Assembly (NCBI GenBank): GCA_001801865.1 | Contig: MGYT01000125.1 | Coordinates: 4,521-45,703, forward strand | Length of the DNA stretch: 41,183 bases | Direction of reading: 5' to 3' | DNA from: Gammaproteobacteria bacterium RIFCSPLOWO2_02_FULL_61_13 | Lineage (GTDB): Bacteria; Pseudomonadota; Gammaproteobacteria; Eutrophobiales; Eutrophobiaceae | Shown: in pieces, positions 4,696 to 31,963 of the stretch | Numbering within the stretch: position 1 is the stretch's first letter | Layout of the letters: each line of letters starts with the position of its first letter | Translations under genes and position numbers: made by a program | Notes under the pieces: model-generated | The model's input: the letters and a program-made list of their open reading frames with translations, nothing else | What the model was told of the DNA's origin: nothing | The model's database searches: none

Positions 4696-5243
4696 TATTG
4701 CAAGGTCTCCTGATCCATATCGATGCCATACATTCGCATTTCCTCCCGAATCAGCATCACACCGGTGCGCACATGCTCCATCACCTGCATCAACGCCGTT
4801 TCGTCTTCTTCGTCCGGCTCATCCACTCCGACGCGGCTGATCACGTCCATGTCCCGCAGCCACTCCTGGATCCCGTCGCCAAGCACCCGCGCCGGCAGGT
4901 CCTCCACCAGGCCCAGCCCGGACAGAAATCCCCGGCACCAGCCGGCCAGCGCCTGTACCCGCTCTGGCATTCCGGTATCATCGTCCGGCAACAGCATTTG
5001 AAAGTCGAACTCCTCCGATGCAAGCTGGCGCCGGGACTCGTACAACAACTGGCGCACGTGTTCATGGCAAGCTTCCGCCCGGGCGACATCCAGCGTGCGC
5101 AGATCCAGGAACTCCTGCCACAGTTCTTCTGCCGGGAAGTGCGGGCTGCATAATTGGCCGCACAGAAAGCCATGGCACTCCGCCGCCCCCACACCGGCGC
5201 CGGCCGCGGACAATGCCGATTCGAAATCCTGGTGCCCGGACAT
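4695..5243 (-). CDS. ygfB: UPF0149 family protein YgfB
   Basis: Acidic protein with AECHGFLCG and ALAGWCRGFLSGLGL blocks resembling E. coli YgfB, in the conserved ygfB-pepP position. The start is set at MSGHQDF (5243), preceded by GGAGGCGGGGGAA. The stop overlaps the pepP start by 1 nt (TAATG). The longer ORF-track N-terminus is Arg-rich and improbable. Confidence 0.8.
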   Translation of the reverse strand: MSGHQDFESALSAAGAGVGAAECHGFLCGQLCSPHFPAEELWQEFLDLRTLDVARAEACHEHVRQLLYESRRQLASEEFDFQMLLPDDDTGMPERVQALAGWCRGFLSGLGLVEDLPARVLGDGIQEWLRDMDVISRVGVDEPDEEDETALMQVMEHVRTGVMLIREEMRMYGIDMDQETLQ

Positions 5244-5342
5244 TTCCCCCGCCTCCGCGCGTTGCAAGTGATTTACGCGCCTGCATTTTGCCGGCCGGCA
5301 ATTCGCATCCGCCTGCCGGCCGTCCCGCGCCCGATCGACCTG

Positions 5343-5371
5343 TTGACCGTGATCAGGGCGCGCTCTATATT
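5343..5371 (+). promoter_or_regulatory. Putative sigma70 promoter for the coiled-coil gene-zapA-ssrS transcription unit
   Basis: TTGACC (5343-5348), a 17-nt spacer, then TATATT (5366-5371), about 60 nt upstream of the ATG at 5432. Confidence 0.45.
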
Positions 5372-5431
5372 GTCCCAAAAATCGCACTGCCATGCGTCAG
5401 TAAAGTGCGCATTGCCCTGCCAGATTGCACC

Positions 5432-5656
5432 ATGCCGGAATCCAAACCAGAAACACTCGACCTCGTAGCACTCGAATCTAGGGTGGACGACCTGATTCGC
5501 ACCGTGGGTCAACTGAAGACCGAGAACTCCGCGCTGCGCAGCCAGCAGGACAATCTGATCAATGAACGGGCGACACTGATTGAAAAAACCGAACAGGCCC
5601 GTTCCCGCATTGAATCCATGATCACGCGGCTGCGTGCCATGGAGACGCGGTCATGA
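5432..5656 (+). CDS. Small coiled-coil protein (ZapB-like / TIGR02449-type) upstream of zapA
   Basis: 74 aa, MPESKPETLDLVALESRVDDLIRTVGQLKTENSALRSQQDNLINERATLIEKTEQARSRIESMITRLRAMETRS, with heptad character. ATGA stop/start overlap with zapA. Pseudomonas-type genomes have a gene in the same position. Only the last 74 codons of the 5018..5656 ORF look real. Confidence 0.6.
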   Translation: MPESKPETLDLVALESRVDDLIRTVGQLKTENSALRSQQDNLINERATLIEKTEQARSRIESMITRLRAMETRS

Positions 5657-5967
5657 GCACCGGTCTGCGTCCGGTTACCATAACCATCCTGGAGAAGGAG
5701 TACCTGATCTCCTGTCATGAGGAGGAGCGTGATCAACTGCACACGGCCGCCGCGTTCCTGAATGACAAGATGCGCGAAGTGAAAAATGGCGGCAAGGTGG
5801 TCGGGACCGAACGCATTGCGGTGATGGCGGCGCTGAATATCACCAGCGAACTGCTCTCCCGGCGTTCCGAGACCGAGGAATTGAGCAGCTCCGTCGACTC
5901 GACCATCAGGCGCCTGCGCAGCAAGATTGACGCGGCCCTGACCCAGGGCGCACGGGTTGAGATGTAA
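5653..5967 (+). CDS. zapA: Cell division protein ZapA
   Basis: 104 aa. VTITILEKEYLISCHEEERDQLHTAAAFLNDKMREVK...RIAVMAALNITSEL matches the ZapA fold pattern, and 6S RNA follows immediately, as in other gammaproteobacteria. Confidence 0.85.
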   Translation: MSTGLRPVTITILEKEYLISCHEEERDQLHTAAAFLNDKMREVKNGGKVVGTERIAVMAALNITSELLSRRSETEELSSSVDSTIRRLRSKIDAALTQGARVEM

Positions 5968-6044
5968 TGAGGTTAACTGGCTGATTCAAGCCGTCGTGAG
6001 CAGGTCCGGCTGCGCGAAGCCGCGCAGCAGTCTTGAATCAACAA

Positions 6045-6240
6045 ATTTGGGTATCTTCTGCGGTGTTCGTGTGCCGGCTGGTGTTTCTTGAGCCGATTCT
6101 TAGTCGCAAAGGGAACTGAACCGCGGCCTGTTGTGCATGCCCGCACTAAGCGGGAAGCCTGAAGCGCCGCTCGCTGTTCCCACTTGAACCATTGGTTCAA
6201 GACTAAAGGCCGGTAGCGGCACTGCGGTTGATACCCACCT
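6045..6240 (+). ncRNA. ssrS: 6S RNA (SsrS); ends are approximate to about 5 nt
   Basis: Blocks shared with E. coli 6S: CTTGAGCCGAT, GCATGCCCGCACTAAGCGGGAAGCCTGAAG, and ACTTGAACCATTGGTTCAAGAC (E. coli CCUUGAACCAAGGGUUCAAGG). The closing stem GGGTATC..CTGCGGTG (6049-) pairs with CACTGCGG..GATACCC (-6236). Canonical location after zapA. Confidence 0.85.
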
Positions 6241-6251
6241 TCTGCGTAAAC

Positions 6252-6280
6252 TGCCGGCGTCGGGCCGGCATTGTTTTTTC
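6252..6280 (+). terminator. Intrinsic terminator after 6S RNA
   Basis: 7-bp stem TGCCGGC/GCCGGCA (6252-6258 and 6264-6270), 5-nt loop, then TTGTTTTTTC. Confidence 0.75.
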
Positions 6281-6298
6281 ACCGCCCGGGGTAACACC

Positions 6299-6763
6299 GT
6301 GAACTACTGGCTGATGAAATCCGAACCCTCGGTCTTCAGCATCGATGACCTGGCGCGCCGGCCCGGCCGGACTGACAGCTGGGACGGGGTGCGCAATTAC
6401 CAGGCCCGCAACATGCTGCGCGATGAGATGCAGCCCGGGGATTGCGCGTTCTTTTATCATTCAAGCTGCGAGGAACCGGGCGTGGCAGGCGTCATGAAGA
6501 TCGTTTCCCGGGGTCAGCCGGACACCGCGGCCTTCGACCGGCGCAGCGATTATTACGATTCCGGCAGCACGCCGGCGGCGCCGCGCTGGTACTCCGTGGA
6601 TGTGCAGCTGCAGCGCAAATTCAAACGTGTCATTACGCTGACGGAACTGCGGGCGCAACGGGCACTGGCGGGTCTCGCGTTGCTTCAGCGCGGCAACCGG
6701 CTGTCGGTGTTGCCGGTCAGCAGCGCGGAATGGAAATGCATCCTGTCTCTGGCGGCAGACTGA
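6299..6763 (+). CDS. EVE (PUA-like) domain protein
   Basis: 154 aa. NYWLMKSEP...WDGVRNYQARNMLRDEMQPGDCAFFYHS...GVAGVMKIV is the typical EVE-domain N-terminal pattern. GTG start. Confidence 0.8.
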   Translation: MNYWLMKSEPSVFSIDDLARRPGRTDSWDGVRNYQARNMLRDEMQPGDCAFFYHSSCEEPGVAGVMKIVSRGQPDTAAFDRRSDYYDSGSTPAAPRWYSVDVQLQRKFKRVITLTELRAQRALAGLALLQRGNRLSVLPVSSAEWKCILSLAAD

Positions 6764-8284
6764 TCACATCAGGAACATGCGGTAGGCGGGATTACCGGTC
6801 TCTTCCGTGAACACCATATCCAGGTTGGCCAGGAAGGCCCGGAATTCCGCCCGTTCCGCCACCGGCACCTGGATCCCCATCAACACCCGGCCATAGGCGG
6901 CGCCATGATTGCGGTAATGGAACAGGCTGATGTTCCAGCGGTCACCCATGCGTGACAGAAACTGCAGCAGGGCGCCGGAACGCTCAGGAAACTCAAAGCG
7001 GTACAACACCTCATCCGCAGCCGTCGGCGCATGGCCGCCAACCATGTAGCGCACGTGCATCTTGGCCAGTTCGTTGTCGCTCATGTCCACCACGTCGTAA
7101 CCGCGGTCGGCCAGCGCCTGGAGCAACGCCGCCTTTTCCTCCAGTCCATGGCGCAACTGGATCCCGGCAAAAACCCGTGCTTCGCTGGAATCCGAATAGC
7201 GGTAATTGAATTCAGTTATCTGGCGCGCCCCCAGGTCATGGCACAACGCGCGGAAACTCCCCGGCCGCTCCGGTATGGTGATGCAGATCAGCGCCTCCCG
7301 TTGTTCCCCCAGTGCCGCCAGTTCGGCGATGTGTCGCAGTCGATCAAAATTGACATTGGCGCCGCTGAATATGGCAACCAGATCGGCGTCCCGCAGGTGG
7401 TGTGCGGCCACGAACTGTTTCAAACCGGCCAGCGCCAATGCCCCGGCCGGTTCCGGGATCGCGCGCGTGTCCTCGAAGATGTCCTTCACCGCGGCGCAGA
7501 TTTCGTCATTCGTGACCAGCAGGATCTCATCCACCAGCGCCCTGCAGACACGGAATGTCTCGTCCCCCACCCGCCGCACGGCGGCGCCATCGGCAAAGAT
7601 GCCGATGTACGGCAATTCCACCGGCCGACCCGCCGCAAACGCCGCATGCATGGACGGCGCCTCATCGGATTCAACGCCGATGATGTGGATCCCGGGATGA
7701 GCCTGCTTGATGCAGCAGGCAATGCCGGCGATGAGCCCACCCCCGCCCACGGGGACAAAGACATACCGGGGAAGTGTTTTGCTCTGCTGCAGGATCTCCA
7801 CCGCCACCGTCGCCTGGCCGGCGATCACCAACGGGTGGTCATACGGTGGTATCAGCGTGCGACCGGAACCGGCCGCCAGTTCCTCGGCATGCAGCTTGGC
7901 CTCGTCATAGGTGTTGCCGTGCAATACCACATCCGCATTCAACCGCCGCACCGCATTGATCTTTATCTCCGGCGTGGTCTTCGGCATGACGATTAATGCG
8001 GAAACACCCAGATGCTGCGCTGCCAGCGCCACGCCCTGGGCATGATTGCCGGCCGATGCGGCGATGACACCGCGACCCTTTTCAGCAGCAGTCAGGGTCG
8101 CGAGCATGTTGTAGGCGCCGCGCACCTTGTAGGAGAACACCGGCTGCTGGTCCTCGCGCTTCAACCAGATGCGGTTACCCAGCAGCCGTGATAATTGCGG
8201 CGCCAGATCGAGCGCCGTCACCCGCGCCACGTCATAGACGCGCGACCCGGCTTCTGTGATCAACGATTGGTATTCGGGGAACAC
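6764..8284 (-). CDS. ilvA: Biosynthetic threonine dehydratase (threonine ammonia-lyase)
   Basis: 506 aa. PLP-lysine block FSYKVRGAYN, a glycine loop (GGGGLIAG), and tandem C-terminal ACT-like regulatory domains. GTG start. Confidence 0.93.
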   Translation of the reverse strand: MFPEYQSLITEAGSRVYDVARVTALDLAPQLSRLLGNRIWLKREDQQPVFSYKVRGAYNMLATLTAAEKGRGVIAASAGNHAQGVALAAQHLGVSALIVMPKTTPEIKINAVRRLNADVVLHGNTYDEAKLHAEELAAGSGRTLIPPYDHPLVIAGQATVAVEILQQSKTLPRYVFVPVGGGGLIAGIACCIKQAHPGIHIIGVESDEAPSMHAAFAAGRPVELPYIGIFADGAAVRRVGDETFRVCRALVDEILLVTNDEICAAVKDIFEDTRAIPEPAGALALAGLKQFVAAHHLRDADLVAIFSGANVNFDRLRHIAELAALGEQREALICITIPERPGSFRALCHDLGARQITEFNYRYSDSSEARVFAGIQLRHGLEEKAALLQALADRGYDVVDMSDNELAKMHVRYMVGGHAPTAADEVLYRFEFPERSGALLQFLSRMGDRWNISLFHYRNHGAAYGRVLMGIQVPVAERAEFRAFLANLDMVFTEETGNPAYRMFLM

Positions 8285-11339: not shown

Positions 11340-11963
11340 ATGGCCACGGTCGCAGTGCTGGATTACGGCAGCAGCAACCTTCGTTCCGTCGCCAAGGCGC
11401 TGCAGGCGGTGGCCGCGCCGGACATGAAGGTGCGCATCAGCACCACTGCCGCGGAGTTGCGCCGCGCCGATCGCATTGTCTTTCCCGGCCAGGGCGCCAT
11501 CGGCCAGTGCATGCAGCGACTGCAGGCGCTGGATTTGATTGAGGCCCTGACCGACTGCCTGCGCGACAAGCCCTTCCTCGGCATCTGCCTCGGCATGCAA
11601 AGCCTGTTCAGCACGAGTGAAGAGAACGGCGGCACGCCATGCCTGAACATCGTTCCCGGCACGGTGCGGCGTTTTCCTGCAGGCGCCGGACTCAAGGTGC
11701 CGCATATGGGGTGGAATCAGGTCCGGCAAAGGTTACCGCATCCGCTCTGGGAAGATATCCCCGGCGGCGAGCGCTTTTACTTCGTGCACAGCTACTATGT
11801 TGCGCCCGCAGATGACACGAACATCGCGGGCAGCACCGATTACGGTATTGATTTCACGTCGGCAGTGGCGCATGAGAATCTGTTCGCGGTGCAATTCCAT
11901 CCGGAAAAAAGCCAGCGCCCTGGCCTGGCACTACTGCGCAATTTTCTGCACTGGCAACCGTGA
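11340..11963 (+). CDS. hisH: Imidazole glycerol phosphate synthase, glutamine amidotransferase subunit
   Basis: The start is set at MATVAVLDYGSSNLRSV (11340). Class I amidotransferase catalytic Cys context (FLGICLGMQ) and C-terminal FAVQFHPEKS. Confidence 0.9.
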   Translation: MATVAVLDYGSSNLRSVAKALQAVAAPDMKVRISTTAAELRRADRIVFPGQGAIGQCMQRLQALDLIEALTDCLRDKPFLGICLGMQSLFSTSEENGGTPCLNIVPGTVRRFPAGAGLKVPHMGWNQVRQRLPHPLWEDIPGGERFYFVHSYYVAPADDTNIAGSTDYGIDFTSAVAHENLFAVQFHPEKSQRPGLALLRNFLHWQP

Positions 11964-11994
11964 TAGGTCCGGTTGGCCGGATTCCGCCCCCCGG

Positions 11995-12033
11995 AAAAAC
12001 AAATGGGCCATGGATCACGAGGATCCATGGCCC
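11995..12033 (-). terminator. Intrinsic terminator for the HU-fold gene; the hairpin may also stop hisH transcription
   Basis: Perfect 12-bp stem GGGCCATGGATC/GATCCATGGCCC (12005-12016 and 12022-12033) with loop ACGAG. On the minus strand it is followed by ATTTGTTTTT. There is no U-run on the plus strand. Confidence 0.7.
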
Positions 12034-12080
12034 GCTGAAACTACCGCGCCGGCAAACCGGCCGGGAGGATTAATCAGCAA

Positions 12081-12416
12081 TCAGCCTGCCGCCATGTCCT
12101 TCAACGCCTTCAGGGCGATGGCGCGCACGGAGTTGGTGGCCGGTTTGGCCTTGATCATGATCTCTTCGCCGGTGAAGGGATTAATGCCCTTGCGCGCGGC
12201 ACGCGCGGGCTTCATGACACGACGCAGCTTCACAGCGATTGACGGCACGGTGAATTCGCCCGAGCCCTTCTTGTTCAGGTGGCAACGCGCAAGTCCGGTC
12301 ATGGAATCGAGTACTGCGCCGACCTGCTTTTTCGTCAACCCGGTATCTTCCGCGATGGCGCTCAAAATCTGCGACTTGGTCTGTTTGCTGGTGATGACTG
12401 TTGGTTTCTTGGCCAT
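12081..12416 (-). CDS. HU-fold (bacterial histone-like) DNA-binding protein with a basic N-terminal extension
   Basis: 111 aa. Residues from about 14 onward align to HU/IHF (ILSAIAEDTGLTKKQVGAVLDSM...; arm RKGINPFTGEEIMIKAKP; C-terminal KALKDMA). They are preceded by the non-HU tail MAKKPTVITSKQTK. Confidence 0.8.
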   Translation of the reverse strand: MAKKPTVITSKQTKSQILSAIAEDTGLTKKQVGAVLDSMTGLARCHLNKKGSGEFTVPSIAVKLRRVMKPARAARKGINPFTGEEIMIKAKPATNSVRAIALKALKDMAAG

Positions 12417-12543
12417 TTAGATGTCCTCATTATTCTGCTGGTGATTTGGATGTTCGCTGCCCCAGAATGCCCCGCCCGGCACGCGGCCCGGCGGTCAATG
12501 CTGTAATTATTATTTGTAGCTCAAGGCGGGGTAATTATGCTAT

Positions 12544-13341
12544 TTAAATGGGACGATTGCCATCCGGAAATCCCGTTATTTCCCGCTTTTCCTGCCCAAT
12601 CCGTCCCTGCACTTCCCGCCACAGGGCCGCGAATGATGCACTGGACTCGCTGCCCGGGGCGCAGACGGGAAGCGGGGCGCGGAACTCCCCCATGCGCTCC
12701 ACCACGGCGGAATAACTGATGCTGGTACTCAACACCTCGGGGTGATCGCGGTGCACGTCCAGCATAGTGTCGCGGTGCAGACGGCGGCGCCGGTCAACCA
12801 TGGAGAAAAACGGCAGCAATCGCACCTGGAATTCCGGGTGCTTCCCGAACCAGGACTTGAGTCGTTCGTAAACACGCAACGACAGGATGGTCGGAATCAG
12901 GGGGATCAGCAGGACGTCCGCGGCCCGGAAGACATTCTCGGACACGATTGAAATCGCGGGCGCACAGTCCAGGAACACGTGGTCATATTCACCGCGCACC
13001 GGTGCCACGAGTTCGGCGAGGCGGCCGGCCCAGCGCTTTTTCCGCCCCAGATATTGATCCAGATTGCGATAGGAAAAATCCGCCGGCATCAAATCCAGAC
13101 CGGGATAGTTGGTTGCCTTGATGAAGTCCTGCAGTTCGCGCCGGCCCTTGATTAACTGCTTGCTGCCGCCGCGAATCCTGGGTTTCACACGGAAAAAGTA
13201 GCTGGCGGCGGCCTGGGGGTCCAGATCCCAAAGCAACACCTGGCCGCCGGAGGCGGTCGCCGCGTAGGCCAGGTTGACCGCCGCCGTGGTCTTTCCGACA
13301 CCGCCCTTCAGGTTGTAACAGGCGAAGACCCTGGCGCTCAT
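12544..13341 (-). CDS. Orphan ParA/MinD-family P-loop ATPase
   Basis: 265 aa. Deviant Walker A with signature lysine (NLKGGVGKTT), DLDPQ, and Walker B-like HVFLDCAP. Its ATG overlaps the stop of the upstream CHAD gene (ATGA at 13338-13341). No ParB-like gene is adjacent. Confidence 0.85.
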   Translation of the reverse strand: MSARVFACYNLKGGVGKTTAAVNLAYAATASGGQVLLWDLDPQAAASYFFRVKPRIRGGSKQLIKGRRELQDFIKATNYPGLDLMPADFSYRNLDQYLGRKKRWAGRLAELVAPVRGEYDHVFLDCAPAISIVSENVFRAADVLLIPLIPTILSLRVYERLKSWFGKHPEFQVRLLPFFSMVDRRRRLHRDTMLDVHRDHPEVLSTSISYSAVVERMGEFRAPLPVCAPGSESSASFAALWREVQGRIGQEKREITGFPDGNRPI

Positions 13342-14897
13342 GGCGGCCCTGCCAGCAAACGTTCCATGGCGGCGCGCACCGGCTCCGCCGCAAACCGCTC
13401 AAAGCGCCGGACGAAACCCTGTTGCGCCTCCAGCTCCAGCCGATCCAGTTCCAATCCCAGTTCCGCCATGGCAGCCAGCGATTGCGAGTCCGTGTCTGTC
13501 CGCGCCAGGAACTCCTGCTGCCATTGCCGCAGCCATTCGCGTTGCACGTGGTAGTCCACGATATCGCCCAGCACACCCTGCAGCTTACGCAACCGGCGCA
13601 GCACCTCGTCCACGTCCGCTGAAGGGTAAAGCGTGCGAAAGGCCTCAAGCAGGTAGCGCAGCTTCTTGCCGTCCTTGCGCAACTCATGCAAAACCGGGCT
13701 GTACGTGCCGACACCGCAGCGCGCGCCATCGCGCAGCAGGCGCTTGTGCAAGCGCCGCAATGCGTCGTTGGCGGCGTCCAGCACATAGGGCGCGGAATTC
13801 ATGCGCGGCGCATGGCGGCCGGCAAACCCCTCGAGGTAATGGCGCCAGTCCGGGAGGAAATTCCGAAACCTGATACCACTCAATGTCAGCACCAGATCCG
13901 CATGCGCCTGGCGCCGCCGTTCGACCAGTCCGTCCAGCAATGGCGCCAGGGCGCGCTCATGCCTGCCGCTGAGCCGGGCAGCCAGCCCCGGCAATGCCGA
14001 CAGGAACACATCCAGATCCCGCTGCGGAGATGTGTTCGCACTCAGCCACGCAAACGTGTCCCGGAATGACGCTGTTCCACGTCCGGGAAAGGCGCCGCGC
14101 ACCTGGGTCAACAGTGAGCGGCTGCGCCGGCATGCGATGCGGAAGTCATGCAGGAACTCGGTGTCCGTGTCGCTCCGGATCCCGTCCACATTGGCCGCCA
14201 GGATCCGCAACTGGCCCAGTAATATCAGGCCCAGGGCACGGGCGGCGGACTGGCGTGGGCGCAACGGAACCGGCGTATTTACTGGTGCCCCAGCCTGCAT
14301 TTTGCTGAACAAGGCGAGGAATTTCCGCGCCGGGTCGCTTTCCGGGCCGGCGCCATCCAGCACGGCATCAAGTTCCGCGAACAGGCGCCGGCAGGACTTC
14401 TCATAACCCCGCAACGGCCAGAGTCGCAATACATTCAGCAGAGTGGTGCCGCGTCCGGTGGAGGCGGCCCCAATTACCTGTTCCCGCGACAACGTGGCGC
14501 GGATCTTACCTTCGCCGTCGACCACGCGAAAATCAGTGATGCGCATGCACAGCAGGCACTGCACCAGCAACGCCCGGCCACCGAGCAGCGGCTGGATTGC
14601 AGACTCCACCGGCCCGGCCGGCACCACGAATGGCTCGGGTACGGGTGTGATCAGCGGCTGTTCCACATAGTCCACTTCCGCACCGGCACCGTACAGGCGC
14701 ACGCGCGACTCGCCATCCACATCCAGCTCCAGAAAACGTCCGGCCCGGCGTAATCGATGATCAAACGTGTCAAACAGCAGGCGCTGAATCTGGCGTGTGC
14801 CGGACTGCTGGAGATCGAAAGAGGACGCCACCAGGTTGCGCGCGGAAACGAACTCCCGCTGGGTCGCAAGGACACGTTGGAACAACCTTCCGTTCAT
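13338..14897 (-). CDS. CHAD domain protein with a divergent CYTH-like N-terminal domain
   Basis: 519 aa. The C-terminal half carries the conserved-histidine helical motifs of CHAD (EFLHDFRIACRRSRSLL; VLHELRKDGKKLRYLLEAF; LQGVLGDIVDYHV). The N-terminal roughly 200 aa resembles CYTH (QIQRLLFDTFDHRLRRAG) but I see no ExExK motif. Confidence 0.85.
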   Translation of the reverse strand: MNGRLFQRVLATQREFVSARNLVASSFDLQQSGTRQIQRLLFDTFDHRLRRAGRFLELDVDGESRVRLYGAGAEVDYVEQPLITPVPEPFVVPAGPVESAIQPLLGGRALLVQCLLCMRITDFRVVDGEGKIRATLSREQVIGAASTGRGTTLLNVLRLWPLRGYEKSCRRLFAELDAVLDGAGPESDPARKFLALFSKMQAGAPVNTPVPLRPRQSAARALGLILLGQLRILAANVDGIRSDTDTEFLHDFRIACRRSRSLLTQVRGAFPGRGTASFRDTFAWLSANTSPQRDLDVFLSALPGLAARLSGRHERALAPLLDGLVERRRQAHADLVLTLSGIRFRNFLPDWRHYLEGFAGRHAPRMNSAPYVLDAANDALRRLHKRLLRDGARCGVGTYSPVLHELRKDGKKLRYLLEAFRTLYPSADVDEVLRRLRKLQGVLGDIVDYHVQREWLRQWQQEFLARTDTDSQSLAAMAELGLELDRLELEAQQGFVRRFERFAAEPVRAAMERLLAGPP

Positions 14898-14969
14898 GGA
14901 AAATACCGGCCGCTGCCGGATGACGGCGGAGGACGCGTCAGTATCAACGCGGGCATGGGAGATTCGAGA

Positions 14970-16256
14970 TCAGGAACGCGACAGGGCCCGATGCGCGATA
15001 TCCCGGCGATAGAACATGCCCGGCCAGTTGATCCGGTCCACGGCCGCATAGGCGTGCCGCCGCGCCTCCGCCACACCCGTGCCCAATGCGCCCACGCACA
15101 GCACGCGGCCACCGCTGGTGAGCGTGTCGTCACCGCGCAGCACCGTGCCGCCGTGAAACACTTTGACGTCCTGACCAAAGTCCTGCTCCAGTCCATGAAT
15201 GACATCACCCTTGCGCGGTTCGTCGGGATAGCCTTCGGCGGCGAGCACCACTCCCAGCGCAACACGATCATCCCAATGCAAATGATGGCCCGCCAACCCG
15301 CCTGCCACCGCTGCCCTGCACAACTCGACCAGGCTGCTTTGCAATCGCAGCATGATGGGCTGCGTTTCCGGGTCGCCCATCCGGCAGTTGAATTCCAAAA
15401 CCGTTGGTGCGCCATCGGCACCAATCATCAAACCGGCATAAAGAAACCCGACATAGGGCTTGCCCTCCGTCGCCATGCCGGCGACGGTGGGCAGAATAAT
15501 GGCGGACATGACCCGGTCATGCACGTCCGGGGTGACCACCGGCGCCGGTGAATAGGCGCCCATGCCACCGGTATTCGGCCCCCGATCACCGTCATCCCGC
15601 GTCTTGTGATCCTGGGAACTGGCCAGCGACACAACGTTTTGGCCGTCGCTGACCACCATGAAGCTGGCCTCTTCACCGGGCAGAAAATCCTCCACCAATA
15701 CCCGTTGCCCGGCCGCGCCAAAGCGATTCCCGGCCAGCATGTCACGGGCGGCGGCGGTGGCCTCGGCCTGATCCTGCGCCACCACCACACCCTTGCCGGC
15801 AGCCAACCCATCGGCCTTCACCACCACGCGCCCCGGACGGCTGCGCACGAATTCCAGGCACGCTTCCAGTTCCGTGAAACTGCCGTAGGCTGCCGTCGGT
15901 ATGCGGTGCCGGGCCAGAAAATCCTTGCAGAAAGTCTTCGATCCTTCCAGGGCCGCGGCCGCCGCCGATGGCCCGAAACAGCGCAGACCCCGGGCGCGGA
16001 ACCTGTCCACGCAACCCGCGACCAGCGGCGCTTCCGGCCCGATGATGGTCAGCGCAACGTCCTGTTGCACGGCAAACTCCACCAGCGCCGCGGTCTCTTC
16101 GGCGCGAATCGGAACATTGGTCAGTTTATTTTCCCGCGCCGTGCCCGCGTTACCCGGCGCCACAAACACCTGCGCCACGTCGTCATCCTGCGCCGCCTTC
16201 CAGGCCAGTGCATGTTCACGTCCACCACCGCCGACAACGAGTATCCGCTGCGTCAC
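14970..16256 (-). CDS. purD: Phosphoribosylamine-glycine ligase
   Basis: 428 aa. [16 protein letters not shown] at the N-terminus, an ATP-grasp core, and C-terminal GGRVLCV. Confidence 0.95.
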
Positions 16257-26630: not shown

Positions 26631-26830
26631 ATTAACTCTGCGATTTAAGCTGCCATTCTACCGCGAAAATCCCCCCAACACCTTGAATTTCTTGCCAATG
26701 AACATGATGAGTTACGGGGCGCACGCGGTCCGATGCTAAAATTGACACCCTAGGCCGACTGACTTTGATCGGCGCCATTCCCCGCATCCTCACGGAGGAG
26801 AAGATCCCGGCACGCCGGGACCATTTGCCC

Positions 26831-27655
26831 ATGACCGCCAAAACCCGCGTATATCGCCGCCGGCCCAGCCAGGCTGAGCGCAGTGACCCGCATGTTTTGT
26901 ATGAACGCGCAGTGCAACACGTTGGCGCAGAAATCGATTTCATTGACGAGACCTTCAGCGCATTACGCGGCCGCCGTGCTGAGCGATTGCGGGAGGACTT
27001 TTGCGGCACGGCGAACACCTCCTGTGAATGGGTGCGAAGGCGTAGCGGCAATCAGGCCTGGGGAGTGGACCTGGATCCGGCCGTGCTCGACTGGTCGCGC
27101 ACCCACAAAATCCCAAAATTGACCCCGCGCCAGCGGCAACGCCTGCGCCTTTTGAATGTCGATGTCCTGCGCGTGCGCATCGAGCCGGCGGACGTCGTGC
27201 TGGCCATGAATTTCAGTTACTGGGTGTTCCGCGACCGCGGCACGATGAAGCGTTACTTCCGCAAGGTGCGCGCTGGACTGGCTGCCGATGGAATATTCTT
27301 CCTGGATGCCTTTGGCGGTTACGAAGCATGCCAGGAACTTGAGGAAAGCACTGTCCATTCTGGTTTCACCTATATCTGGGACCAGACCAGATTCAACCCG
27401 ATCAACAGCGACATTACCTGTCATATTCACTTCAAGTTCCGGGACGGATCGCGGCAGGAGAAAGCCTTCACTTATCATTGGCGCCTGTGGACGCTGCCGG
27501 AACTGACCGAATTGCTGGAAGAATGCGGTTTCAAGGCGACCGTCTATTGGGAGGGCACGGACAAAAATGGCGACGGGGATGGCAATTTCACTCCCGCCAC
27601 GATGGGCGAGGCTGATGCCGGATGGATCGCGTACATCGTCGCCGAAAATCAATGA
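26831..27655 (+). CDS. Class I SAM-dependent methyltransferase (substrate unknown)
   Basis: Motif I-like REDFCGTANTS and post-I GVDLD, in a Rossmann-type arrangement. I prefer the start at MTAKTRVY (26831) over the TTG at 26765, but neither has a clear SD. Confidence 0.7.
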   Translation: MTAKTRVYRRRPSQAERSDPHVLYERAVQHVGAEIDFIDETFSALRGRRAERLREDFCGTANTSCEWVRRRSGNQAWGVDLDPAVLDWSRTHKIPKLTPRQRQRLRLLNVDVLRVRIEPADVVLAMNFSYWVFRDRGTMKRYFRKVRAGLAADGIFFLDAFGGYEACQELEESTVHSGFTYIWDQTRFNPINSDITCHIHFKFRDGSRQEKAFTYHWRLWTLPELTELLEECGFKATVYWEGTDKNGDGDGNFTPATMGEADAGWIAYIVAENQ

Positions 27656-27686
27656 GCGCGATGCGATCCGGCACCCGGTGTTTATT

Positions 27687-28238
27687 TCAGACGGCGTCTT
27701 CCGGCCCGGCGCGCCTGATTTCCCGCGGCCGCACCAATTGCAGCACGCGGCCGCTGCCGGGTCTCGTCCCGATCTTGCCGTTGAATTCCAGCACCGCCAC
27801 GGCCGCCGTGGTCATGAGTTTCCCGCGCTCGTCGCGCGGCGGTGGTTCCGAGGCCAGATGCGCGATCAGTTCCTCCAGGCCCGGATTATGGCCGACCAGC
27901 AGCAACGTATCGCTGCCGGCGGCATGGGCGGCGATTACATCCAGCAACTGGCGCAGCCCGGCCTCGTAGATGCGATCATCGAAAATGATGCGTTTGCGCC
28001 GGATGTGCAGCCTTCCCACCACCAGCTCGGCGGTGGCCCGCGCCCGTTGCGCCGGCGAACTGACCACCAGGTCGGGGACCAGACCGTTTTTTTGCAGCCA
28101 CTTGCCCATGCGCAGCGCGTCCTTTTCCCCGCGCGCCGCCAATGGCCGGTCGAAATCGCGCCGCAGATTTTCCGGCCAGTCCGATTTTGCGTGGCGCATC
28201 AGCAGGAGCAGGCTTTTTTTCATCGTCATTTCATCCAT
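27687..28238 (-). CDS. SixA-like histidine phosphatase family protein
   Basis: Catalytic RH motif in LLLMRHAKSDW, and a second His in LLVGHNPG, typical of the SixA/PGM branch. Three in-frame ATGs (28238, 28229, 28223) leave the start ambiguous. Confidence 0.7.
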   Translation of the reverse strand: MDEMTMKKSLLLLMRHAKSDWPENLRRDFDRPLAARGEKDALRMGKWLQKNGLVPDLVVSSPAQRARATAELVVGRLHIRRKRIIFDDRIYEAGLRQLLDVIAAHAAGSDTLLLVGHNPGLEELIAHLASEPPPRDERGKLMTTAAVAVLEFNGKIGTRPGSGRVLQLVRPREIRRAGPEDAV

Positions 28239-28289
28239 GGCACCATATTCAAAACATTATAACGCCGCAAACCCGCGGCGCCGGTCCCG

Positions 28290-29786
28290 ATGAGTCAGCC
28301 CGGTACTGATTCCTTCGCCGCGGTGGATCTGGGCTCGAACAGCTTTCACATGGTCGTGGCCACCTACACTGATGGCCACTTGCAGATCATTGACCGCATC
28401 AAGGACATGGTGCGACTGGCTTCGGGCCTGGATGAAAAACGCGATCTGACGCAGGACTCCATGGAACGTGCCATCCAGTGCCTGGAACGATTCGGTCAAC
28501 GCATTGGCGAGGTGCCGCGCTCTCATGTCCGCGCGGTGGGAACCAACACGTTGCGCCAGGCGCGCAATGGCGCCGCCTTTCTCGTCCGTGCGCGCAAGGC
28601 GCTTGGACACCCGATCGAGATCATTGCCGGACGCGAAGAGGCACGCCTCATTTATCTGGGGGTTTCACATTCGGTGTACGGTGCCGGCGAGCGGCGCCTG
28701 GTGGTCGACATCGGCGGCGGCAGTACGGAGGTGATCATCGGACGCGGCTTTGTGCCACGGCTGATGGAAAGTCTGTATATGGGCTGCGTGAACATGAGCG
28801 AACAATATTTCAGCGGCGGGGAAATCACCGCCAAACGCATGCGTCGCGCCATGTTGTTTGCGCTCCAGGAACTGGAAAGCATCGAGACCACGTACCAGAA
28901 AGCCGGCTGGGACGCGGTCATTGGCGCGTCCGGAACCATCCAGGCGATCCACGATGCCATTCGCGCCAAAGGCTGGGGCGAGGAGGGCATCAGCGCCGAA
29001 GGGTTGCAGCGGTTGCGCGAATTCCTGGTGGAAACGGGGGACCAGAAAAAACTGGTGCTGGAAGGCGTGTCGGATCGGCGCATGCCGGTTTTCATCGGCG
29101 GCGTCGCCATCCTGAGTGCGGTATTTGAGGCGTTGCGAATCGATCAGATGCTGATCTCGGACGGCGCACTGCGCGAGGGCTTGCTGTATGAACTCATCGG
29201 CCGCACACAGGACAAGGACACCCGTGACCAGAGTATTGCCGAACTTGCTTTGCGTTATGGCGTGGATGGTGAGCAGGCCAAACGGGTGGCAACCGCCGCC
29301 GGCAGGCTGTTCAAACAGGTGCAGGGGTCATGGCTGCTGGATGCGCGCGCGGACACGAAATTGCTGGAGTGGGCGGCGCAGATACACGAGATCGGACTCG
29401 CGGTGGCCCATGCCCAGCATCATCATCACGGCGGCTACCTGCTGACGCATTCGGACATGGCGGGGTTTTCACGCCAGGAACAGCGCCACCTGGCGGTGCT
29501 GGTGCGCCTGCACCGGCGCAAGTTCGATACACAGGAACTCGCCGGCATGCCCGATGACGAGCGCGAACGCCTGCAGCGACTGTGTGTCCTGTTGCGCCTG
29601 GCCGTGGTGTTGAACCGCAGTCGCTCGAGCGCCGCGCCGCCGTCTGTCAGTGCCAGCGCGGAGAAGAACCGCATCACCCTGCGCTTTCCGTCCCGCTTCC
29701 TGTCCGAGCATCCGCTGACGCTGGCAGACCTGGAGGGCGAACAGGAGTTTTTGCGCGCCGCGGATTTGGAACTGGCACTGGAGTAG
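28290..29786 (+). CDS. ppx: Exopolyphosphatase (Ppx/GppA family)
   Basis: 498 aa. AAVDLGSNSFHMVV and VVDIGGGSTE are ASKHA phosphate-binding motifs. The C-terminal HD-like domain has HEIGLAVAHAQHHHHGGYLL. Confidence 0.9.
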   Translation: MSQPGTDSFAAVDLGSNSFHMVVATYTDGHLQIIDRIKDMVRLASGLDEKRDLTQDSMERAIQCLERFGQRIGEVPRSHVRAVGTNTLRQARNGAAFLVRARKALGHPIEIIAGREEARLIYLGVSHSVYGAGERRLVVDIGGGSTEVIIGRGFVPRLMESLYMGCVNMSEQYFSGGEITAKRMRRAMLFALQELESIETTYQKAGWDAVIGASGTIQAIHDAIRAKGWGEEGISAEGLQRLREFLVETGDQKKLVLEGVSDRRMPVFIGGVAILSAVFEALRIDQMLISDGALREGLLYELIGRTQDKDTRDQSIAELALRYGVDGEQAKRVATAAGRLFKQVQGSWLLDARADTKLLEWAAQIHEIGLAVAHAQHHHHGGYLLTHSDMAGFSRQEQRHLAVLVRLHRRKFDTQELAGMPDDERERLQRLCVLLRLAVVLNRSRSSAAPPSVSASAEKNRITLRFPSRFLSEHPLTLADLEGEQEFLRAADLELALE

Positions 29787-29815: not shown

Positions 29816-31894
29816 TCACTGGGAATAATGGCAATGGTGGTCCAGCAGGGTGCGCTGGGCGGAGCGCGGCTTGTGGCTGCCGGGTCGAAGCCGCCGGTAG
29901 CCACCATCGCTTTGCAGGATCCAGGCCTGGGTATTGTCGGCCAGGTAGTTGAGCAGCCCGAATTCGATGATCTGCTCGCGCGGCCGTTTTTCGTCAATCG
30001 GGAAACAGGCCTCGACACGGTGATGCAGATTGCGCGGCATCCAGTCGGCGCTGGAGCAGAACAGCAATTCGTCGCCACCATTAAGAAAGTAGAACACGCG
30101 GCTGTGCTCCAGAAAACGCCCGACGATGCTGCGCACCTGGATGTTGTCGGATACCCCCTTCACGCCGGGGCGCAGGCAGCACACGCCGCGAATGATCAGG
30201 TCAATCTTCACACCCGCCTGTGAGGCGCGGTACAAGGCCTGAATAATGTCCGCATCCACCAGTGCATTCATCTTGGCGATGATGCGCGCCTCCCTGCCGC
30301 CAAGCGCATTCTGTATCTCGGTCTCAATGCTGCTGATGATGCCCTTGTAAAGGGTAAATGGCGACTGCAACAGCTTCTTCAGCTTGCCGGCGCGCCCGAG
30401 TCCGGTGAGCTGGTGGAACATGCGGTTGACGTCCTCCACCATGGCCTTGTCGCAGGTAAGCAGGCTGTAGTCCGTGTACTGGCGGCTGGTGCGAGCATGG
30501 TAATTGCCGGTGCCCAGGTGCGCGTAGCGGCGCAGGCTGCGGCCTTCCCGCCGCACTACCAGGATCATCTTGGCATGGGTTTTATAACCCACGACCCCGT
30601 AGACGACATTGGCCCCGGCCTCCTGCAATTCATTGGCGAGTTCAATGTTGGCTTCCTCGTCGAACCGGGCGCGCAGTTCCACGACCACAGTGACTTCCTT
30701 ACTGCCCCGGGCCGCCTCGATCAACGCATCGACCACCGCCGAATCATTGCCGGTGCGATACAACGTTTGTTTTATGGACAACACGTCCGGATCGGCGGCC
30801 GCTGCGCGCAGAAAATCAATCACCGGCGCAAACGACTGGAAGGGATGATGCAGCAGGATGTCGCCGTTGCGCAGTACATCAAAAATATTGGCGTCTTTCT
30901 GCAGACGCGGGGGCACATCCGGGCTGAACGGCGAGAAGAACAGCTCCGGCCGCTTCACCAGTTCGTAGATGGCCAGCAACCGGTTCAGGTTCACGGGGCC
31001 GGGCACCTGGTATAAATCACGCGCCTCGAGCCCGAATTTGTGCAGCAGGAACTGGCTCAGTTCGCCGGGACAGTTGTCAGCCACTTCCAGACGCACCGCG
31101 TCGCTGAAACGGCGTGATGGCAGTTCGCCTTCCAGTGCCCGCAGCAGGTCATCCACTTCCTCGTCGTCGACCAGCAGATCGCTGTCGCGTGTCACCTTGA
31201 ACTGATAACAACCGGTGGCCTTCATGCCCGGGAACAGATCGCCCACGTGCGCATGAATGATGGCAGACAGCAACACAAATTCGTGCGGCCCGCCGCTTTG
31301 CGCGGCCGGCACATGCACGACGCGCGGCAGTGAGCGCGGGGCCTGCACAATGGCGAGCCGGGTCTCGCGCCCGAAGGCATCCTTGCCCTCCAGCGAGATG
31401 ATGAAATACAGGTTCTTGTTCAGTACGCGCGGGAACGGATGTGCCGGGTCGAGACCGATCGGACTCAGCACCGGCAGTACATTCTGATTGAAGTAACTGC
31501 GCACCCAGCGCGCCGTGTTCGGGTTCCATTCGGATCGACGCTGCACCCGGATGTGCTCCCGGGCCAATGCCGGTTGCACCACCTCGTTCAGGACCCGGTA
31601 TTGCTCCGCCACCAGCTTGTGTGCCACATCGCTGATGCGATCCAGCAGGAATTGCGGGGCAATGTTGTCCGGTCCGGATTGCGTGGACCCGTATTTCACC
31701 TGTTGCCGGATCCCGGCCACCCGGATCTCGAAGTACTCATCCAGGTTGGTGCTGGCGATGCACAGAAACCGCAACCGCTCCAGCAGCGGCACGTCCTCGT
31801 CCATGGCCTGGTCGATGACGCGCCGGTTGAACTCCAGTTGGCTGAGTTCCCGATTGAAATACAGTTCCGGATTCTTGAGATTGACCGCGTCCAT
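29816..31894 (-). CDS. ppk: Polyphosphate kinase 1
   Basis: The start is set at MDAVNLKNPELYFNRELSQLEFNRRV (31894), the canonical PPK1 N-terminus, with AGGGTGA upstream. It has tandem PLD-like C-domains and an autophosphorylated-His context (VGYKTHAKM). Confidence 0.95.
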   Translation of the reverse strand: MDAVNLKNPELYFNRELSQLEFNRRVIDQAMDEDVPLLERLRFLCIASTNLDEYFEIRVAGIRQQVKYGSTQSGPDNIAPQFLLDRISDVAHKLVAEQYRVLNEVVQPALAREHIRVQRRSEWNPNTARWVRSYFNQNVLPVLSPIGLDPAHPFPRVLNKNLYFIISLEGKDAFGRETRLAIVQAPRSLPRVVHVPAAQSGGPHEFVLLSAIIHAHVGDLFPGMKATGCYQFKVTRDSDLLVDDEEVDDLLRALEGELPSRRFSDAVRLEVADNCPGELSQFLLHKFGLEARDLYQVPGPVNLNRLLAIYELVKRPELFFSPFSPDVPPRLQKDANIFDVLRNGDILLHHPFQSFAPVIDFLRAAAADPDVLSIKQTLYRTGNDSAVVDALIEAARGSKEVTVVVELRARFDEEANIELANELQEAGANVVYGVVGYKTHAKMILVVRREGRSLRRYAHLGTGNYHARTSRQYTDYSLLTCDKAMVEDVNRMFHQLTGLGRAGKLKKLLQSPFTLYKGIISSIETEIQNALGGREARIIAKMNALVDADIIQALYRASQAGVKIDLIIRGVCCLRPGVKGVSDNIQVRSIVGRFLEHSRVFYFLNGGDELLFCSSADWMPRNLHHRVEACFPIDEKRPREQIIEFGLLNYLADNTQAWILQSDGGYRRLRPGSHKPRSAQRTLLDHHCHYSQ

Positions 31895-31899
31895 ATTCA

Positions 31900-31963
31900 C
31901 CCTGGTTACCCTGGTTTGCGCCGGGCCAGGCGCACGCCACCAGTATGCGCACGCCACCAGTAT
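31900..31963. repeat. Two sets of tandem direct repeats in the phoU-ppk spacer
   Basis: GCGCACGCCACCAGTAT occurs twice, perfect and head-to-tail (31930-31946 and 31947-31963). CCCTGGTTA/CCCTGGTTT are head-to-tail (31900-31908 and 31909-31917). Confidence 0.9.

Follow-up and report, generated by a model that had tools for sequence, protein, structure and literature searches.

What is a ParA-type ATPase doing in a gene that overlaps one for a CHAD protein? The question arises from a 41,183-nt stretch of contig MGYT01000125.1 from Gammaproteobacteria bacterium RIFCSPLOWO2_02_FULL_61_13, analysed here over its whole length and called the window. On its minus strand, a gene for a 519-amino-acid (aa) CHAD protein runs directly into one for a 265-aa ParA/MinD-family ATPase, which is followed by a gene for an HU-family protein. 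A first-pass annotation, made from the letters of the DNA alone, had read the three genes as a candidate system for positioning polyphosphate (polyP) granules. Our comparative analysis supports the core of that idea, namely that the CHAD protein and the orphan ParA would form one polyP-related module: the two genes are adjacent in many genomes, reverse look-ups from CHAD homologues lead back to the ATPase, and ppk1, ppk2 and ppx genes are neighbours in several lineages. The pair is probably a self-contained two-gene module that organises polyP granules in space as a ParA-type cargo system, and the HU gene lies outside it.

The linkage between the two genes was assessed in two genome scans. The first used generic ParA motifs and returned at least 600 matches, mostly ordinary ParAs, which therefore serve as the control set; the second used motifs specific to the clade of the window ATPase and returned at least 80 metagenome loci. 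All locus counts given here are samples rather than censuses, drawn from among the matches listed (80 loci per scan), and all loci were searched with a CHAD profile built from ParA-linked proteins. The first-pass annotation had staked its proposal beforehand on the adjacency recurring outside this genome, and it does. A CHAD gene stands immediately upstream, on the same strand, in 57 of the 89 clade loci that are non-redundant, come from at least six phyla and retain at least 150 nt of upstream sequence (counting L022, whose two genes are each broken by frameshifts), whereas none was found within 6 kb in 64 other ParA loci (Fisher p = 3.8e-19), a comparison in which very divergent control CHADs might escape the profile. 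Starting from the other side, all four CHAD homologues looked up on long contigs (29-34% identity) have a clade ATPase gene directly downstream. The two genes overlap at 30 of 56 junctions, at 24 of the 56 by 4 nt as in the window, and gaps of at most 30 nt separate them at 19 more. In the window the CHAD stop and the ParA start share an ATGA, as the first-pass annotation had read it, and the minus strand across the junction runs ...GGGCCGCCATGAGCGCC.

Clustering of the clade sequences spreads CHAD adjacency through nearly every subclade, and CHAD-ParA pairs occur in Acidobacteriota, Actinomycetota, Alpha- and Gammaproteobacteria, Thermodesulfobacteriota and Calditrichia. The genomic contexts of the pair are unrelated to one another. 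The synteny that surrounds it in the window, purD...HU-hisH, is found both with and without it, and the pair thus behaves like a cassette of two genes that some genomes have at the purD/HU-hisH junction and others lack. Uncultured Sedimenticola genomes carry the module, as do the cultured Paracoccus aestuarii DSM 19484, P. marcusii and Rhodothalassium salexigens DSM 2132 and, according to PMC10892726, Acidithiobacillus, which makes experiments feasible. At one further locus, a large serine recombinase gene (L167:9187-9671) lies ~2.7 kb downstream of the pair in an otherwise unrelated context; it might bear on cassette mobility.

Could the ATPase simply partition DNA, as a chromosomal, plasmid or remnant ParA whose CHAD neighbour is fortuitous? 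Its best solved relatives are chromosomal ParA/Soj proteins, and RefSeq attaches the Gene Ontology term 'chromosome segregation' to the Paracoccus homologues. The gene neighbourhoods argue otherwise. As the first-pass annotation had stated, the window holds neither a ParB partner (no open reading frame (ORF) anywhere in it has a ParB GERR box) nor a cluster of parS-like repeats (only chance two-copy matches occur in 11900-15100). Across genomes, a ParB-like gene lies downstream in at least 35 of 64 control loci and in 0 of 99 clade loci, and the adjacency to CHAD, at p = 4e-19, speaks against a fortuitous neighbour. Every curated NCBIfam partition equivalog scores far below its cut-off: the ParA_partition profile gives 75.8 bits against a cut-off of 180, and RepA, SopA and PrgP fall far under theirs. 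Relatives at E < 1e-20 are present in 11 of 72,556 plasmid records and in none of 2.9 million viral contigs. The Paracoccus copies lie on secondary replicons (296 kb, 369 kb), far from the replicon starts and within an operon of a small hypothetical gene, CHAD, the clade ATPase, a stand-alone CYTH and a NUDIX gene (L174:4296-7648 in P. aestuarii p296221; L177:4285-8246 in P. marcusii). The comparative data already refute the ordinary partition reading, to which we leave next to no probability.

A phage or plasmid origin of the ATPase was likewise rejected on the empty viral contigs, the 11 plasmid records and the position of the Paracoccus copies inside CHAD operons. Also set aside was a role in anti-phage defence, for which PADLOC gives only a P-loop-level match (26 bits). 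Clade ATPases without a nearby CHAD gene do occur on plasmids and chromids, in Halomonas sp. PA16-9 (L175, a 1.83-Mb replicon, 104-829), on a Pontibacter plasmid (L176) and on Marinobacter pMAQU02 (L180, 3998-4744). The Marinobacter copy is near pyruvate kinase and phbB genes; the Halomonas and Pontibacter copies stand at record start and end, and a replicon-partition role is possible there.

The ATPase belongs to a distinct, basic, ParB-less ParA clade linked to CHAD genes. Pfam assigns it to AAA_31/CbiA, and a homologue search recovers a large family of ~247-270 aa at 53-83% identity. Seventeen genome-scan relatives at E ≤ 1e-52 (39-54% identity), from Acidobacteriota, Actinomycetota, Alpha- and Gammaproteobacteria and Thermodesulfobacteriota, split sharply from the rest, which are ordinary ParAs at ≤ 35%. 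In average-linkage clustering, 97 clade sequences fall apart from 64 other ParAs, and the clade has private motifs (PADFS, FFSMVDRRxxLH, VERMG and LW). Besides these motifs, the clade is marked by a basic isoelectric point (pI) and the lack of ParB.

The deviant Walker A motif noted in the first pass is complete, at residues 12-18. Within the clade, KGGVGKT is kept in 98-99% of sequences and both K12 and K17, invariant in other ParAs, in 99%; the Walker A' and B aspartates D39, D41 and D125 are conserved in the clade and in other ParAs alike. The AlphaFold2 (AF2) model has a predicted local distance difference test (pLDDT) score of 84, except for a variable, low-confidence C-terminal tail of 16 residues. 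In Foldseek it reaches a template modelling (TM) score of 0.83 to Myxococcus xanthus ParA 8RAY and 0.76-0.81 to Soj structures. These are also the nearest solved proteins, with McdA, MinD, FleN and BcsQ further off. Judged by its catalytic residues and the ParA/Soj fold, both kept, the ATPase looks active. It reaches no curated NCBIfam equivalog cut-off (minD_bact, for instance, gives 32 bits against 213), and membership of the MinD, FlhG, BcsQ, McdA or MipZ families was rejected on profile matches that are all weak and far under the cut-offs. A MinD-like C-terminal membrane helix is not conserved, most clade members stopping right after the last core helix.

What would such an ATPase act on? 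The 519-aa protein is the presumed polyP-granule-binding adaptor, by homology to the Chlorobium protein CtCHAD, which has been crystallised with polyP and whose binding has been shown experimentally (PMC6537752). Pfam CHAD (PF05235) matches residues 225-457 at E = 3e-49 (168 bits against a cut-off of 25.6), and a phmmer search of the Protein Data Bank (PDB) aligns residues 230-516 to 6qv7 and 3e0s at E = 1e-34, with 32% identity to CtCHAD. In the AF2 model (pLDDT 89), Foldseek matches the C-terminal half to Chlorobium CHAD 6qv7 and its polyP complex 6qva at a target-normalised TM of 0.88, and TM values to 6qv7, 6qva and 3e0s together range over 0.88-0.90. The CHAD domain has a pI of 10.2, and H250, R253, R257, R260, R293, H404, R407, K411 and R414 are invariant in the family alignment.

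Over its full length, the protein aligns to Escherichia coli YgiF 5a60 in Foldseek, and its residues 1-215 take a CYTH/triphosphate-tunnel fold, with matches to thiamine triphosphatase and to bacterial and archaeal triphosphate tunnel metalloenzymes at E = 1e-5 to 1e-4. Pfam CYTH finds nothing there even at E = 1. Of the domains named in the first-pass annotation, CHAD, AAA_31/CbiA and Bac_DNA_binding were therefore confirmed by profile, and CYTH was recovered only as a predicted fold. Beta-strand 1 reads RLFQRVL in place of ExExK, and LRIR is replaced by LELD. Because these motifs are absent, the N-terminal domain looks pseudo-enzymatic, and they are lost in most ParA-linked homologues too. 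A canonical CYTH enzyme, considered as an alternative, is ruled out for this subfamily by the missing motifs and the lack of a Pfam match at E = 1.

The two-domain layout is general: all complete, unfragmented CHAD proteins encoded upstream of a clade ATPase have both domains and at least 480 aa. The degenerate domain alone, used as a query, retrieves 177 cluster representatives, mostly full-length proteins of ~500-560 aa with the domain at the N terminus, beside shorter proteins that may be fragments. In a minority subclade the CYTH domain is still canonical (ExExK), and a SixA-like phosphatase gene lies between CHAD and ParA; Pfam CYTH does match L154 (4e-12) and L018. This histidine phosphatase (Pfam His_Phos_1, ~165 aa) occupies L139:3560-4228, L140:811-1317, L154:1772-2314 and L165:177-500, and at L169:6648-7154 it stands just after ParA instead. 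It could be tied to the phospho-histidine intermediate of Ppk1.

Genes of polyP enzymes are known neighbours of CHAD genes (PMC6537752), and in several lineages the clade ATPase is part of such clusters. The most complete among the loci examined comes from Calditrichia (L168:2501-9536), where PPK2-CHAD-ParA-PPK1-Ppx/GppA lie on a single strand; another (L169) reads CHAD-ParA-His_Phos_1-Ppx-PPK1, and in a third (L114) Ppx is upstream. In Methylophaga, ppk1 overlaps the clade ATPase gene, which follows it directly, with no CHAD gene. The CHAD-ParA-CYTH-NUDIX order of the Paracoccus operon is a further tie to polyP. Acidithiobacillus has a conserved folD-ppk-parA-CHAD-pepN cluster, mapped in a 2024 paper on CHAD and copper that comments on its ParA only as a plasmid partition protein and otherwise leaves the gene map uninterpreted (PMC10892726). 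Sedimenticola carries pepN-CHAD-ParA, and the shared pepN-CHAD-ParA and ppk1 neighbours are suggestive of the Acidithiobacillus parA falling in the same clade.

The same arrangements would suit an ATPase that regulates polyP synthesis, by setting the nucleation site, granule size or Ppk1 localisation or activity, rather than one that positions finished granules. Regulators of this type have precedents: BcsQ localises cellulose synthase, and MipZ and PomZ mark sites. The Methylophaga gene directly after ppk1, the place of the ATPase between PPK2/CHAD and PPK1/Ppx in L168 and L169, weak BcsQ-type profile matches with BcsQ among the structural ones, and the third of clade members that have no CHAD neighbour all speak for synthesis control. 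However, it is CHAD, which is not an enzyme, rather than Ppk1 that is the commonest and most tightly coupled partner (57 of 89 loci, many of them with an overlap), and the relatives nearest by sequence and fold are the cargo-moving ParA/Soj proteins rather than BcsQ or MipZ. We consider synthesis control unlikely.

Other neighbourhoods of CHAD-less clade ATPases were noted. In a freshwater lineage (L102, L120, L131, L159), the ATPase gene (~4776-5528) lies between a pair encoding a hybrid histidine kinase and a response-regulator-GGDEF protein and a glycogen phosphorylase gene; at L131 the gene after the ATPase spans 5512-8115. Glycogen phosphorylase is an enzyme of another storage polymer. 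At L111:3423-4745 and L160:3398-4873, CHAD-less clade ATPases stand beside genes for Mg2+ transporters (CorA, MgtE), which may be coincidence; Mg2+ is a main polyP counter-ion.

The window has its own phosphate genes. At 15-28 kb from the pair are ppx, ppk1, phoU, pstB, a permease gene of the Pst type, pstS, phoR and phoB, of which ppk1 and ppx, ~15 kb distant, are not linked to the CHAD-ParA module in this genome. A ppk-ppx-pho cluster is ordinary in proteobacteria. The first-pass annotation was right that these genes are present; as support for the module they are poor, and the real support comes from other genomes. Just upstream of ppx, two plus-strand ORFs overlap, 26765-27655 with a weak, below-cut-off methyltransferase match and 27567-28262 (231 aa) with no Pfam match; either may be the real gene.

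The three consecutive minus-strand genes are found in the ORF list exactly where the first-pass annotation had placed them (Table 1). ORF translations and Pfam-annotated syntenic loci put hisB/hisH on one side of the block and purD/purH on the other. Only 72 nt separate the purD stop from the CHAD gene. No clear promoter was made out upstream of the CHAD gene, nor was a Pho box spotted there by eye, no pattern search having been run.

Table 1 Coordinates of the CHAD-ParA pair, its parts and other genes of the window
Feature	Position	Strand	Basis
519-aa CHAD gene, two-domain protein (degenerate CYTH-like + CHAD)	13338-14897	minus	ORF list, Pfam
N-terminal CYTH-like domain, residues 1-215 of CHAD protein	14253-14897	minus	Foldseek, motif comparison
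CHAD domain, residues 216-519	13338-14252	minus	PDB phmmer, alignment
CHAD stop TGA / ParA start ATG overlap, ATGA	13338-13341	minus	sequence
265-aa ParA/MinD-family ATPase gene	12544-13341	minus	ORF list, Pfam
Deviant Walker A KGGVGKT, residues 12-18, signature lysine K12	13288-13308	minus	sequence
111-aa HU-family gene, examined, outside module	12081-12416	minus	ORF list, Pfam
ppx	28290-29786	plus	Pfam Ppx-GppA
ppk1	29816-31957	minus	Pfam, all four PP_kinase domains

Is the HU gene part of the system? The first-pass annotation had proposed its product as a possible third component, a partner on the nucleoid or polyP side. The gene does follow ParA, at a gap of 127 nt rather than the 125 given, and is adjacent to the pair both in the window and in pur/his-syntenic relatives. 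Its product matches Pfam Bac_DNA_binding (5e-13; 49.5 bits against a cut-off of 22.4), and the 111-aa protein does not reach the HU-alpha, HU-beta or IHF equivalog cut-offs. It is strongly basic (pI 10.6); the described lysine-rich N-terminal tail amounts to only 4 Lys in the first 14 residues. Moreover, a histone-like protein, AlgP, has an effect on how granules are spaced in Pseudomonas (PMC9239181).

Comparison of loci contradicts the three-gene version. Three look-ups yielded four loci (L170-L173; HU at 5001-5333) with the order dusB-fis-purH-purD-HU-hisH-hisB-hemF and no CHAD-ParA. Conversely, no HU gene accompanies the pair outside the purD/hisH synteny in the 80 metagenome clade loci, the genome-scan clade loci, L003, L167-L169 or Paracoccus. 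Because purD-HU-hisH is kept without the pair and the pair occurs elsewhere without HU, the HU gene is a resident of the purD/hisH junction and not part of the module; we therefore rejected it as a member. A promoter-like site of its own precedes it (12563-12534), and a strong terminator follows (12033-12005). The variant (110 aa) is 70-80% identical over many relatives, far above the CHAD-ParA pair, as expected for a housekeeping nucleoid protein. The three-gene version is already largely refuted, and we regard it as very improbable. Two further observations concern the HU protein itself: its best solved relative is African swine fever virus pA104R (E = 6e-10), ahead of bacterial HU, and many genomes of gammaproteobacteria have the variant fixed between purD and hisH.

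How might a CHAD protein and a ParA-type ATPase organise granules between them? In the mechanism that we favour, the 519-aa protein would bind the granule through its basic CHAD domain, leaving the catalytically dead CYTH-fold domain free as an interaction surface toward the ATPase. The co-translated ATPase would form ATP-sandwich dimers and bind to a polyanion as its matrix, the nucleoid being the likeliest one, and the granule-borne CHAD protein would recruit and stimulate it. Depletion gradients, as in the diffusion-ratchet action of ParABS and McdAB, would then space and partition the granules, and what the pair controls would be granule number, spacing or inheritance.

Several observations weigh against this proposal. 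Its basis is wholly comparative or structural prediction. In about a third of the clade loci CHAD is missing from the neighbourhood, so the link is not obligatory in cis; where CHAD is not adjacent, the partner may be encoded elsewhere. ParB activates its ATPase through a disordered basic N-terminal peptide, and ParG and McdB likewise use such a peptide as ATPase activator; in the alignment and the AF2 model, the CHAD protein starts at beta-strand 1, with no conserved disordered basic N-terminal peptide. In some organisms, deletion of a CHAD protein (phosin) has had only a small effect on granule formation (PMC13081873). Finally, non-specific DNA binding involves an arginine that is R238 in M. 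xanthus ParA and R189 in Soj. That position aligns to V213, which is variable in the clade, and the surrounding PRNVRLSEAPSxG region is replaced by PYASxVERMGxxR. Nucleoid binding is therefore not to be assumed, because the canonical DNA-binding arginine is not conserved.

The loss of this arginine brings up the possibility that the matrix is polyP itself. The median pI of clade ATPases, 9.2, is basic and their net charge is +6, where other ParAs have a median pI of 5.3 and a net charge of -5 (p = 1e-22), and this shift of ~+11 charges per monomer is compatible with binding to a polyanion. PolyP is a DNA-like polyanion, and the clade has its own conserved residues R51, R92, R156, H189 and R221. 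In one form of the idea, polyP replaces DNA altogether: the basic dimer would bind the granule or its chains, CHAD would modulate it, and fusion, fission and surface organisation would be controlled independently of the nucleoid. The basic surface, however, fits DNA binding equally well, and granules are nucleoid-associated in Pseudomonas and cyanobacteria (PMC9239181; PMC13081873), which makes this form decidedly improbable to us. It also sits poorly with ParA/Soj and McdA, close and well-characterised relatives that transport cytoplasmic cargo and do so on the nucleoid. In a broader form, a ParA-type system would operate on the inorganic polymer, the ATP-bound basic ATPase binding polyP directly and the pseudo-enzymatic CYTH fused to CHAD acting as its activator. 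PolyP would then replace or join the nucleoid as matrix, and granule size, fission and fusion, and inheritance would come under the ParA cycle. This broader form we hold to be a speculative option, with a limited chance of being right.

If the pair does place granules, it would fill a recognised gap. How polyP granules are spaced and inherited is described as undefined in a 2025 review and again in a 2026 mBio paper, and the 2025 review treats ParA-family positioning only for carboxysomes and DNA cargo. A full-text literature search (polyphosphate with ParA, CHAD and positioning) returned no paper assigning a ParA to polyP granules, although Tumlirsch & Jendrossek 2017 or Iyer & Aravind 2002 could hold an earlier mention. 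PolyP goes unmentioned in the ParA/MinD cargo survey and in the ParA/MinD review, and the CHAD papers searched do not discuss ParA coupling, the sole trace being the uninterpreted gene map in PMC10892726. Recurring in many phyla and often placed among genes of polyP enzymes, CHAD-ParA is a first concrete candidate for a machinery that places polyP granules. The cassette offers one genetically testable hypothesis for two questions, how granules are placed and what CHAD proteins (phosins) do in the cell. If it proves true, an inorganic storage polymer would join the list of ParA/MinD cargos, and the folded pseudo-CYTH plus CHAD protein would represent a new class of adaptor. Such a system would also be relevant to phosphorus-removal biotechnology and starvation physiology.

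One known system for comparison is AlgP, a histone H1-like protein that evens polyP granule spacing on the nucleoid in P. aeruginosa (PMC9239181). Like the proposed module, AlgP is a protein factor in the spatial organisation of polyP granules; it differs in being unrelated in sequence and mechanism and in involving no ATPase, and the window HU protein is only superficially analogous to it. ParABS is closest to the ATPase itself: 8RAY, Thermus thermophilus Soj and Helicobacter pylori Soj are nearest in both sequence and fold (TM 0.76-0.83), with the same signature lysine in the deviant Walker A and the same Walker A' and B aspartates. The window ATPase nevertheless shares ≤ 35% identity with them, has no ParB or parS and carries many clade-specific substitutions, and its clade is basic, does not conserve the DNA-binding arginine and reaches no NCBIfam equivalog cut-off.

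McdAB offers a parallel in organisation. There too, a small, ParB-less ParA-type ATPase stands beside a non-DNA-binding adaptor for a cytoplasmic, non-genetic cargo (here presumed), and the window ATPase has a Foldseek TM of ~0.75 to Cyanothece McdA. In a profile search, however, McdA is distant, at 59 bits compared with 118 for ParA/Soj; as adaptor the window pair would have a folded protein of CYTH-like and CHAD domains where McdAB has the disordered, condensate-forming McdB, and its cargo would be a granule of inorganic polymer. For Synechococcus elongatus, polyP spacing is stated outright not to depend on McdAB (PMC13081873). The presumed adaptor itself resembles the phosins (Ralstonia eutropha PptA/PptB, C. 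tepidum CtCHAD and E. coli YgiF), with which it shares a CHAD domain with conserved His and basic residues and, in the case of YgiF, the same two-domain CYTH-CHAD layout. What sets the window protein apart from these phosins is a CYTH-like domain that lacks ExExK and LRIR and goes undetected by Pfam, and a subfamily specifically coupled to a ParA-type ATPase.

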